From the IMG/VR virus record IMGVR_UViG_2529292834_000008, positions 1 through 14,504 of that record: 14,504 nt of DNA. One strand, given 5' to 3'. Positions 3,001 to 6,000 of this stretch are shown here, one piece after another. Position numbers: made by a program. Numbering within the stretch: position 1 is the stretch's first letter; every line of letters begins with the position of its first letter. The stretch is from a virus (lineage: Duplodnaviria; Heunggongvirae; Uroviricota; Caudoviricetes).

Positions 3001-6000
3001 GGTATTTCATAACCCTCGAGTTCTGGTGGAGCCGGAACCGAAAAGCATGCATGGTCTGCCGTCCGGAGTCGTTCCTGCTGTTCGCCAGCCGCTGGCGGAG
3101 GATAAATCATTACTGCCATTTTTCAGCGATGAGCGGGTGATTCGTGCTGCTGGTGGTGCTGGTGCATTGTCTGACTGGCTGTTACGCCACGTTAAATCCT
3201 GCCAGTGGCCTCATGGTGACTATCATCACAGTGAAACCGTTATTCACCGTTATGGTACTGGCGCAATGGTGTTGTGCTGGTACTGCGACAACCAGCTGCG
3301 TGACCAGACTTCTGAATCACTCGGGCAGCTTGCTCACCAAAACCTGTCAGCATGGATGATTGATGTCATCCGCCACGCAATGAATGGCACGCAGGAGCGG
3401 GAATTATCGCTGGCTGAATTATCCTGGTGGGCGGTCTGCAATCAGGTGGCGGACGCGCTACCAGAGGCAGCATTACGTCGTTCTCTGGGGTTACGTGCGG
3501 AAAAAATTCGCTCAGTATACCGCGAGAGCGACATCGTGCCGGGAGAGCAGACCGCCACCAGCATGCTGAAGCAGCGCACAAAAAATCTTGCGCCGCTGCC
3601 TCACGCCCACCAGCAACAGAACCCACCACAGGAAAAGACGGTGGTCAGCATTGCCGTTGATCCTGAGTCTCCGGAATCTTTCATGAAACGACCTAAACGT
3701 CGCCGCTGGGTTAACGAGAAATACACCCGCTGGGTGAAGACACAGCCGTGTGCGTGTTGTGGTAAGCCAGCCGACGATCCCCATCACCTGATTGGTCATG
3801 GTCAGGGCGGAATGGGGACAAAATCTCACGATATTTTCACGCTACCGCTGTGTCGGGGGCATCACAACGAGCTTCATGCGGATCCGCTGGCGTTCGAAGA
3901 AAAGCATGGTTCTCAGGTTGATTTAATTTTTCGTTTTCTTGATCACGCCTTTGCAACTGGCGTGCTTGGGTAAAAGAGGTGACTGATGCTCATAGATTTG
4001 GTTTTACCTTACCCGCCGACGGTGAACACTTACTGGCGACGCCGTGGCAGCACATATTTTATCTCGGAGGAGGGAAAGCGTTATCGCCGGGCTGTGGCGC
4101 TTATTGTTCGCCAGCAGCGGCTGAAATTAAACCTGTCCGGAAGGCTGGCGATAAAGGTGATTGCAGAGCCACCGGATAAACGTCGTCGTGACCTGGACAA
4201 TATCCTGAAAGCACCACTGGATGCACTGACACATGCGGGGTTGCTTATCGACGACGAGCAGTTTGATGAAATTAATATTGTGCGCGGTCAGCTTGTTCCT
4301 GGTGGGCGGTTGGGGATAAAAATCACAGAACTGGAGTGCGCATGAATAACCAGTATTTACAGTTTGTTCGTGAGCAACTCATGATTGCCACCGCCGATTT
4401 GAGTGGATCAACAAAAGGGCAGCTTGAAGCCTGGCAGGAGAATGCCATGTTCGATACAGGGCGTTACAGGCGAAAAAAAATCCGGTACCGCGATGAAGTG
4501 ACTGGAAAAATGATAACGCGGGATAATCCACCAATCCCGGGAAAGCAATCGCTGGCGAAAGGTTCATCAATTGCCCTGGTCAGTCCGGTTGAGTTTTCGA
4601 CATCATCATGGCGACGCGCCGTTCTGTCTCTTGAAGAGCATCAGAAGGCGTGGGTGCTGTGGGTATACAGTGAAAATCCGAGTTGGGATTATCAGGTGGT
4701 CATTGCGAAATGGGCGTGGGATAAGTTTCAGGTGCATTTTGGCACCAGAAAAATTACAGGGAAAACGCTTGAGCGTCTGAAGAAATTAATCTGGCTGGCG
4801 GCGCAGGATGTCAGGGGGAGGATTACTGGGCGTGACGTCTACCAGCGACAGGAACTTGCCAGACTGTGTGGAGTTAAGCCTGACAACTGGAGCCATAATT
4901 ATGCGAACTACTGGCGTGAGATGTGCGACATTTTTAAGAAACTCGATACAGAATCCTTGATTTGCACCGTGAAAATGAGATCGCAACAAAAAGCGACCTT
5001 TTCACGACGAGATATTGCAAAAGTCAATTAAATCGCATACATTTTATGTAAATGTGATATTTTGCCGTATAGTGTGTAAACCCGCTTAAATGCGGGTTTT
5101 TTGCTTAACTCTGTGGACCTTTTTATCTGTAGTTGTAAGATATGGATATTCTTACAATTTAGGTCGGTGAGCTTAATGGAAGAACAGCACGGTAATTACT
5201 TTATAAAACGAATTCAGTTGATTGGAAGGGGTGCATTTGGCTTTGTTGAACACGTTAAGGTTTACAACCTCAACAAGGGTGAATGTGGGGATTATGCTAG
5301 AAAGGTTTTAGCCCCCGAAAAACCAGAGCTTTTGGCGCAAATAGAGCAGTTTAGAAGGCGTTTTAAAAGGGAGGTCGTGTATCAATCACATTGCGTACAT
5401 AGCAATATTGTTCCTATTTATTTGTGCGATTTGTTTGCCGAGAATCCATGGTTCATTATGGATAAAGCAGAATGTGATCTTGAGCACGAAATAACGAACA
5501 ACCTTCTTACAACAGATCAAAAAATTTCAATAGTGAAAATGGTATTAGATGGTGTAGCTCACATCCATGCGAAAGGCTATTTACACAGAGATATAAAACC
5601 ATTTAATGTCTTGCGATTTAGCGACGGAACATACAAGGTGTCTGATTTTGGTCTGGTAAAAGATACAAATCCCGAAGGGGATACCACTAAATTGACCGAG
5701 ATCGGTACCCGTATGGGAAGTACAAGATATATGGCTCCCGAGATTTTATATAATGCCGAGTATTCAGTTAAGACTGATGTTTATGCGGTGGGGCGGTTAA
5801 TTGAGGACTTAAATTTAGATGATAAAAAAATAAAGCCTATCATAGCGAAGTGTACCAGGATGGATAAAGATGATAGATATCAGACAATAGATGATGTGGC
5901 GTTTGATTTTGTGCATTCTTTTTTAAGGAGTGAGTCATGATTCAGCTGATAGCGACTTCATCATTCTCGTATCCAAAAGAACCAGGTAGGGTCAACGAAG

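Follow-up and report, generated by a model that had tools for sequence, protein, structure and literature searches.

Lambdoid phages carry morons, such as bor and lom of lambda and those of HK97/HK022, which are accessory genes of the late operon with their own sigma70 promoter, a factor-independent terminator and an odd base composition. These genes have been the subject of work by Juhala, Hendrix and colleagues and reportedly can be expressed from the prophage. In Shiga-toxin phages, stx lies downstream of Q, pR' and tR' and has its own promoter, which is Fur-repressed in the case of stx1. This stx arrangement was the model behind the hypothesis put forward in a preliminary description of the DNA analysed here, a stretch of 14,504 nt from an E. 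coli lambdoid prophage (IMG/VR record IMGVR_UViG_2529292834_000008, positions 1 to 14,504; hereafter the window), in which a palindrome ahead of a Ser/Thr kinase gene was regarded as a likely operator of a repressible promoter. The kinase-kinase-phosphatase (KKP) module of Pseudomonas Pf prophages, finally, is a toxin/antitoxin system that works through phosphorylation and has anti-phage activity (PMC11341870).

Like the lambdoid morons, the locus studied here comprises accessory genes of the late operon with a predicted sigma70 promoter and a terminator of their own and a composition unlike that of phage DNA, whereas it carries a Ser/Thr kinase gene and a PP2C phosphatase gene as cargo, its promoter accompanies the cassette through many genera and three Q families, and its expression in the lysogen is only predicted. 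With stx it shares the position directly after the late terminator and, as predicted here, two expression routes, Q read-through and a local promoter; unlike stx, it displays no credible Fur box (11/19, a background score), and its dyad is not conserved. As in KKP, a Ser/Thr kinase and PP2C module is borne by a prophage (PMC11341870), but the genes are unlike in number and order (PP2C-kinase-kinase in KKP, kinase-PP2C in the present cassette), as are hosts and phage types, and neither the promoter nor the palindrome treated below is described in that report (PMC11341870). The kinase also matches the PADLOC models of the single-gene defence kinases PD-T4-6 and Stk2 (E = 1e-34 to 5e-28, over the kinase domain only) and is ~26% identical to 933W-type Stk; PD-T4-6, Stk2 and 933W Stk differ from it in having no partner PP2C and in being located elsewhere in the genome.

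The explanation that we prefer, with a probability of roughly 0.6, is that the palindrome is not preserved as a unit: its left arm would be the TG plus the -10 element of a promoter, P_kin, belonging to a mobile moron cassette, and its right arm would be lineage-specific. A 70-nt gap that had carried no annotation thereby yields a testable statement on a promoter, and the bases concerned can be named exactly: T5136, A5137 and T5141 in the promoter, 5150-5157 in the dyad.

The kinase-PP2C cassette downstream of tR'

The features of the locus are collected in Table 1. The likely pR' occupies the same place with respect to the Q stop codon and tR' as in lambdoid phages, and tR' has an 8-bp GC-rich stem and a 6-nt loop (5078-5099) followed by a T run, with the segment 5050-5106 folding at -14.2 kcal/mol (z = -2.4). 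The PP2C gene comes next after the kinase gene in every locus examined, and a terminator equivalent to the cassette-closing one was found past PP2C in 10 of 10 loci tested (-11 to -17 kcal/mol) and likewise in L111. Ahead of the kinase ATG, CGGTG(A/G) is conserved in the closer loci.

Table 1. Features of the late-operon segment that carries the kinase-PP2C cassette (A2, alignment of 11 cassette leaders)
Feature	Position	Strand	Basis and remarks
Late antiterminator Q gene, PF06323	4342..5031	+	Pfam E = 5e-84; RefSeq 'bacteriophage antitermination protein Q'
Likely pR' late promoter	5015..5043	+	TTGCAA (5015-5020), 17-nt spacer, TACATT (5038-5043); predicted from sequence
tR' intrinsic terminator	5078..5105	+	Terminator scan; repeat I16
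Putative P_kin -35 element TGGACC	5114..5119	+	T5114, G5116 invariant in A2
Palindrome left arm, TTGTAAGA	5133-5140	.	-16 to -9 of P_kin
Putative P_kin -10 element TAAGAT	5136..5141	+	Inside left arm; T5136, A5137, T5141 invariant in A2
Palindrome spacer/loop, tatggatat	5141-5149	.	9 nt; sequence
Predicted P_kin transcription start, A	5148..5148	+	Standard sigma70 geometry, 7 nt past -10
Palindrome right arm, lineage-specific part, TCTTACAA	5150-5157	.	+3 to +10 of P_kin
Shine-Dalgarno-like GGTGAG of kinase gene	5166..5171	+	Putative function
Ser/Thr protein kinase gene, 254 aa	5176..5940	+	Pfam Pkinase E = 2e-33; phrog_2361; PADLOC defence kinase domains
PP2C phosphatase gene	5937..6680	+	Pfam PP2C_2 E = 2e-14; overlaps kinase stop codon
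Cassette-closing intrinsic terminator	6752..6776	+	9-bp stem, CTCA loop, T run; fold -12.4 kcal/mol

The GC content of the cassette (36-41%) lies below that of its flanks (48-55%), and the Q genes that precede the cassette belong to three unrelated families, the lysis genes coming before it in some loci and after it in others. A total of 50 of the 336 E. coli records matching a Q-containing query also match the region from 5030, which covers the pR'/tR' segment and the beginning of the kinase gene. Megablast against a phage collection returned no match. The locus thus combines the hallmarks of a moron, namely the putative P_kin upstream, a factor-independent terminator downstream, an unlike composition and presence or absence between related phages; given a promoter of its own, a strong terminator and a GC-poor cassette, it would be a classic moron with its own promoter.

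In the mechanism that we propose, the mobile cassette would comprise P_kin, the Ser/Thr kinase gene, the PP2C phosphatase gene and the intrinsic terminator; it sits in the late operon directly past tR'. In the lysogen, pR' transcripts would go no further than tR', and P_kin, beginning 9 nt past the T run, would express the pair without Q, whereas during lytic growth Q-modified polymerase would pass through the cassette and the cassette terminator. The activity of P_kin, its start site and expression in the lysogen are predictions made from these elements. The kinase-PP2C pair is widespread in enterobacterial prophages and seems made for Q-independent expression from the prophage, a property to be expected of a lysogenic-conversion or anti-phage module.

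The predicted promoter P_kin and its conservation

The preliminary description suggested that the kinase operon has its own promoter, beyond Q read-through, and this part of it is borne out by a -35/-10 pair that is conserved in 11 cassettes, each with its own terminator. The putative P_kin, TGGACC-16-TAAGAT with a 16-nt spacer, matches the sigma70 consensus (hexamers TTGACA/TATAAT, 16-18 bp apart) at 8 of 12 positions and retains the key bases, T1 and G3 in the -35 and T1, A2 and T6 in the -10; a TG at 5134-5135 precedes TAAGAT, G5135 being at least 90% conserved in A2. This alignment covers leaders from E. coli, Raoultella, Yersinia, Hafnia, Providencia, Xenorhabdus, Serratia, Enterobacter and metagenomes, and its sole invariant columns before the start codon are the five entered for P_kin in Table 1, which together give the pattern T.G...-N16-18-TA...T. 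Across these 11 independent cassettes, a sigma70-type -35/-10 pair is the sole conserved feature of the leader. T[GA]G.. occurs in all lineages at 16-18 nt from the -10, and the -10 reads TAnnnT in 13 of 13 phage-borne loci, ending 30-39 nt before the start codon; among sigma70 matches, the P_kin site ranks first or joint first in 7 of the 11 enterobacterial leaders.

An alignment-free test took the place of a MAFFT shuffle test of invariant columns, MAFFT having misaligned nine remote leaders. The promoter pattern with a -10 ending 30-36 nt before the start codon was present in eight of nine independent lineages, and the ninth had it at 39 nt; the per-sequence chance of the pattern is 0.04-0.07 and the joint chance, position-corrected, is ~1e-10 over all nine, for a motif that was defined after the sequences had been seen. 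Two cultured phages fetched later also fit, Flotzy with TAGCTT-17-TAATTT at 33 nt before the start codon and Cronobacter phiES15 with TGGTAA-17-TAACTT at 31 nt.

Alternatively, there may be no promoter at all: the cassette would be expressed by Q-dependent read-through only, and the TTGTAnnnT motif and the palindrome would be neutral leftovers of common ancestry. The consensus match of just 8/12 is consistent with this, as is a promoter scan with a 9-of-12 filter that left P_kin unflagged (the pR' candidate was likewise unflagged with this filter). We nevertheless consider the absence of a promoter highly improbable, in that the leaders are otherwise unalignable and yet hold the -35/-10 key bases at fixed spacing and start-codon distance in 11 lineages, the motif is kept in cassettes after lysis genes and behind different Q families, and every cassette ends in a terminator of its own. 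The kinase operon therefore very probably possesses a promoter and would not depend solely on Q read-through.

A different -10 had been suggested in the preliminary description, TACAAT at 5153-5158. The hexamer does lie at that position, yet it is not conserved and its best -35, TAGTTG, matches at 2 of 6 bases, and the conserved -10 is TAAGAT; combining TACAAT with TTGTAA as the -35 leaves a spacer of just 14 bp, and we rejected this pairing as well. TACAAT might instead act as a -10-like element at +6 to +11 of P_kin that causes a sigma70-dependent promoter-proximal pause, as at lambdoid pR'. It matches the -10 consensus at 5 of 6 bases, is suitably spaced from the predicted start and is represented by TACATT at the same place in L105, the closest non-identical homologue (kinase 94% identical); against this, TAnnnT occurs in the leader of ~4/9 independent lineages, near the chance rate by our own count, and no Q-binding element is evident, so that we rate the chance of such a pause as close to negligible.

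Distribution of the palindrome and the operator question

Direct reading of the sequence confirmed a perfect 8-bp inverted repeat around the AT-rich core tatggatat, situated between tR' and the kinase ATG as originally reported; 18 nt separate its right arm from the ATG, where about 19 bp had been given. When arms of 8 nt or more and loops between 3 and 20 nt are required, the whole window contains 10 distinct perfect inverted repeats, compared to 3.5 ± 1.7 in dinucleotide shuffles, and several of the 10 are terminators, so that no single repeat is individually significant. The palindrome, taken alone, is weakly significant. When the 34-nt leader was shuffled and the promoter-constrained left side kept fixed, a post hoc test, an 8-bp repeat arose in 0.25% of trials.

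The palindrome is restricted to two E. coli variants, V1 (19 loci) and V2 (10 loci, C5151G), and a metagenome scan for new leader variants gave V1 and V2 only. It is absent from L105, in which the right arm is replaced, and from all other genera with the cassette, and the other lineages have no significant inverted repeat overlapping the -10; an inverted repeat over the -10 as a conserved feature of variable sequence, insignificant in every one of these lineages, was accordingly rejected. The left arm, on the other hand, is kept across genera as TTGTAnnn in A2, because it consists of the TG plus the -10. Over the 80 nt before the ATG (5096-5175), V1 and V2 show just two differences, both on the paired positions 5139 and 5151, where G-C becomes T.G in V2; by our own estimate the chance of this is ~0.3%, a hint that the repeat itself is under some constraint.

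The preliminary description took the palindrome for a likely operator, and a dimeric phage or host repressor bound to both arms could indeed block P_kin, making the kinase-phosphatase pair repressible in the E. coli lineage. Several properties of the site would suit such a role. The 8+8 dyad is perfect and overlaps the core promoter from -16 to +10 of P_kin, a classic operator place that is ideal for occlusion, the centres of its outer TTGT/ACAA blocks lie 21 bp from each other, or two helical turns by our own count, a repeat like this is locally improbable (the 0.25% above), and V1 and V2 differ solely at the symmetric position 7 of both half-sites. The change from V1 to V2 is nonetheless asymmetric and leaves unequal half-sites (TTGTAATA vs TTGTAACA), and the dyad is not conserved in homologous loci, being lost in L105 and in other genera that have the same promoter. 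A search for the same palindrome elsewhere found no other copy with up to 3 mismatches in 18.5 kb of L001, immunity region included, and no second copy in any of 144 fetched loci.

Candidate repressors fared no better. The prophage immunity operators of L001 are CACTAAAC repeats unrelated to the palindrome, and the immunity region has no palindrome-like site with up to 3 mismatches, so that an immunity operator was rejected. In Pfam, neither the kinase nor the PP2C protein shows a DNA-binding domain. We also rejected as the repressor a nearby 65-aa ORF of possible winged-helix type (6900-7097): V2 prophages have lost it but retain the repeat, and its own gene has no similar site in the vicinity. 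A Fur box was rejected as well, the match to GATAATGATAATCATTATC (11/19 in V1, 9/19 in V2) being at background level, with 136 window positions scoring at least 11. Boxes of TyrR, RcsAB, DeoR, NsrR, LexA, CRP and lux type include some similar half-sites with wrong spacing throughout and serve as leads only. Taken together, sequence comparison does not support the palindrome as a repressor operator, a role that we regard as unlikely, though not far-fetched.

In the preferred explanation, in which only the left arm is kept as part of P_kin, the right arm TCTTACAA would be a lineage-specific inverted copy of the -10 region, confined to the two E. coli variants. Most likely the right arm has no conserved regulatory role, and at most it may modulate this one promoter or leader in this lineage. 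The palindrome, confined to one lineage, would be of small importance unless binding or an RNA effect exists.

RNA folding of the leader

At the RNA level, the stem of the palindrome reaches 10 pairs by adding A5131-U5159 and G5132.U5158, and a folding energy of -8.7 kcal/mol (z = -3.0) was obtained for the isolated 35-nt RNA of V1 and one of -6.6 kcal/mol (z = -2.2) for that of V2, while the stability of the 101-nt context does not exceed that of shuffles (z = -0.23). Across 11 loci, cross-locus support for a helix is absent (60.5% of cells pair, vs 56% in shuffles, and 41 of 500 shuffles are as high), and a search of Rfam gave nothing at or above threshold. Two roles were rejected. An intrinsic terminator would have a GC-rich stem followed by a U run, whereas the stem here is AU-rich, with a 9-nt loop and UUUAGG after it, and the terminator scan made no call at the palindrome; a leader hairpin hiding the ribosome-binding site in the P_kin transcript would rely on a fold that is insignificant and is weakened by V2.

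A further possibility is a hairpin specific to the late read-through mRNA. Transcripts from pR' would fold the 10-bp stem, whereas P_kin transcripts would start in the loop and could not, and the two mRNA forms, differing in 5' structure, would therefore differ in stability or translation. The folding energies of both variants and the predicted start geometry of P_kin are consistent with this, and the G-C to U.G change between V1 and V2 keeps RNA pairing while breaking DNA symmetry; a wobble change in a single pair is, however, weak covariation. No equivalent hairpin exists in L105 or other genera, the longer context and Rfam lend nothing to it, the stem, 8 nt upstream of the Shine-Dalgarno sequence, leaves the ribosome-binding site uncovered, and the P_kin leader has no significant alternative structure. 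We consider such a hairpin very unlikely to have a function. A bolder proposal, which we hold to be distinctly unlikely, is that in this E. coli lineage the palindrome acts either as a start-sensing switch, with the hairpin in the Q-antiterminated mRNA and only the right arm in the P_kin mRNA, or as an operator that makes a defence-like kinase/phosphatase module of the prophage inducible. The switch, if true, would mean that one gene pair has two mRNAs, unlike in 5' structure, for lysogeny and for lytic growth. As a minor observation on the same bases, the core tatggatat together with G5139-A5140 and T5150 forms the tandem hexamers GATATG GATATT.

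The palindrome and the predicted promoter it overlaps

The palindrome was confirmed, with its arms, spacer and TACAAT (5153-5158) exactly where the preliminary description had placed them and with 18 nt between the right arm and the kinase ATG; the spacer region (5139-5150) is also a tandem hexamer repeat, GATATG GATATT. The palindrome exceeds chance only modestly: counting perfect inverted repeats whose arms reach 8 nt or more and whose loops span 3-20 nt, the window has 10 distinct ones, compared with 3.5 ± 1.7 in dinucleotide shuffles, and several of the 10 are terminators. 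No half-site enrichment was found across the window.

Features of the late region and its surroundings (window coordinates)
Feature	Position	Remarks
hok/sok type I toxin-antitoxin locus	1310-1485	early-right region; Rfam sok 122 bits; RefSeq hokD
Q antiterminator	4342-5031	PF06323
pR'-like promoter	5015-5020, 5038-5043	TTGCAA, 17-nt spacer, TACATT; read from sequence
tR' terminator	5078-5105	
P_kin, predicted promoter	5114-5119, 5136-5141	-35 TGGACC, 16-nt spacer, -10 TAAGAT; predicted start ~A5148
Palindrome	5133-5140, 5150-5157	TTGTAAGA, tatggatat, TCTTACAA
Ser/Thr kinase gene	5176-5940	
PP2C phosphatase gene	5937-6680	overlaps kinase gene
Cassette terminator	6752-6776	
65-aa ORF	6900-7097	phrog_331 (function unknown)
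N6/N4 DNA methyltransferase	7248-8297	directly preceded by the 65-aa ORF
tRNA genes Ile, Thr, Gly	8347-8653	RefSeq; followed by lysis genes and terminase
11-bp inverted repeat	11365-11394	ATCACTGTAAT, 8 nt, ATTACAGTGAT

To compare leaders, kinase homologues at 40-77% identity were collected with their flanks from Raoultella, Yersinia, Hafnia, Providencia, Xenorhabdus, Serratia, Enterobacter and metagenomes. An alignment of 11 cassette leaders showed five invariant columns upstream of the start codon and no others, T5114, G5116, T5136, A5137 and T5141; G5135 was conserved in at least 90%, and the leaders were unalignable apart from these promoter-type columns. The conserved bases are the key ones of a sigma70 -35 (T.G...) and -10 (TA...T), which are separated by 16-18 bp. 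An alignment-free test located the pattern in all nine independent lineages, the end of its -10 lying 30-36 nt ahead of the start codon in eight and 39 nt ahead of it in the ninth (chance per sequence 0.04-0.07; joint chance for all nine ~1e-10, position choice allowed for). Two cultured phages fetched after the prediction also fit, Flotzy (TAGCTT-17-TAATTT at 33 nt) and Cronobacter phiES15 (TGGTAA-17-TAACTT at 31 nt). The pattern was not matched in three copies outside phage late regions (L006, L129 and L130), whose neighbouring genes are non-phage or were not examined.

A predicted promoter of its own for the kinase cassette is thus supported by the comparative evidence, as the preliminary description had suggested, with a different -10: the TACAAT proposed there is not conserved and has TAGTTG (2/6) as its sole -35 partner. 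In the palindrome, the left arm coincides with TG plus the -10 hexamer of P_kin and is therefore conserved, leaving the right arm, at +3 to +10, as its only lineage-specific part; no significant inverted repeat overlaps the -10 in any other lineage. Unless it is shown to be bound or to act through RNA, the palindrome itself is of little interest.

Leader variants and the operator and hairpin readings

The region is present in only 50 of 5,426 complete E. coli genomes, and these, together with IMG/VR and metagenomes, contain just three leader variants: V1, the window's version (19 loci), V2 (10 loci) and that of locus L105. In the 80 nt leading up to the ATG (5096-5175), V2 differs from V1 only by G5139T and C5151G, the two partners of one pair, so that G-C becomes T.G; wobble pairing is retained in RNA (fold -6.6 kcal/mol), and the DNA half-sites are no longer equal. 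L105, with a 94% identical kinase, retains the left arm together with the two flanks, its loop and right arm being replaced by TTGTAAGATAGGCACACCTACATTT with no repeat left. Between flanks ~95% identical to those of L105, the 10-12 nt that begin at the predicted start site show heavy substitution, forming a small hypervariable patch. Two independent IS1 insertions lie less than 20 bp from the palindrome in decayed prophages (L003, at 5165/5166; L004, near 5150), and one of them removes P_kin, leaving the ribosome-binding site and kinase gene intact.

That the palindrome is an operator, as first proposed, is unlikely. The dyad lies where occlusion is classically expected, and V1 and V2 differ at symmetric positions, but the V2 change is asymmetric and the dyad is not conserved in homologous loci, the outcome that the preliminary description had itself named as refuting an operator; the claim is unsupported. 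The suggested search for further copies returned none in 18.5 kb including the immunity region (up to 3 mismatches) and none in any of 144 loci. Moreover, the immunity operators of the prophage are CACTAAAC repeats unrelated to the palindrome, the cassette proteins lack a DNA-binding domain, a Fur match is at background level, and the 65-aa ORF, whose winged-helix similarity is sub-threshold, is deleted in V2 prophages that retain the repeat. The similarity of this ORF is to TrmB, MarR and HTH_24; a 64-aa ORF precedes the methyltransferase in Providencia (L125), and the deletion in V2 prophages L002 and L144 extends into the methyltransferase N-terminus.

Action as an RNA hairpin is less likely still. 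Slightly in its favour are the change from G-C to U.G and the z-scores (isolated hairpin -8.7 kcal/mol, z = -3.0), but the hairpin is missing from L105 and the other genera, leaves the ribosome-binding site uncovered and matches no Rfam family, and no significant structure is predicted for the P_kin leader; given the geometry of P_kin, the hairpin could form only in pR' read-through transcripts. Its 101-nt context was no more stable than shuffles, and a helix across loci was unsupported (60.5% of cells pair vs 56% in shuffles).

A kinase-phosphatase cassette in the late region

The kinase-PP2C pair forms a self-contained mobile cassette of predicted promoter, two overlapping genes and terminator, in the window (5176-6776) and at loci L111, L115, L118, L122, L125, L127, L131, L132, L142 and L143. 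Kinase and PP2C always occurred together among the fetched homologue loci, and the remote cassettes sit in prophage late regions, before or after the lysis genes, behind antiterminators of three unrelated families (PF06323, PF06530 and PF03589). In every cassette tested, including L111, a strong intrinsic terminator (-11 to -17 kcal/mol, followed by a T run) lies shortly after PP2C. The window's cassette has a GC content of 36-41% against 48-55% in the flanks. Taken together, a promoter, two genes, a terminator and a foreign composition within a late operon are the mark of a moron, arranged like those of lambdoid phages, and its promoter is of a known kind, the moron promoter. The stx genes lie after tR' with a local promoter as well as Q read-through, and the cassette's arrangement resembles theirs. 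Similar prophage kinase-phosphatase cargo is found in KKP of Pf phages (PMC11341870), in a different gene order, and defence kinases resemble the cassette kinase in the kinase domain only. A literature search yielded no paper about this specific cassette, which has the appearance of a defence or toxin-antidote module that is still uncharacterised. Outside phages, the pair lies beside TniQ and TIR genes (L129) and beside umuDC and a Com-type methyltransferase (L130).

Positions 4900-5400 (501 nt) are 100% identical to the lambdoid prophage of E. coli E24377A and to 11 further listed genomes. The short pR'-to-tR' transcript (~55 nt, 5050-5105) resembles lambda 6S RNA or StxS, and 5041-5102 is similar, though below threshold, to isrK, a Salmonella prophage sRNA (E = 0.79, far under the gathering score). 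V2 prophages carry tRNAs Ile, Arg, Arg in place of the window's three. The terminase small-subunit gene begins (ATG at 11497) ~100 nt downstream of the window's longest perfect inverted repeat (11365-11394), which might serve in packaging or regulation.
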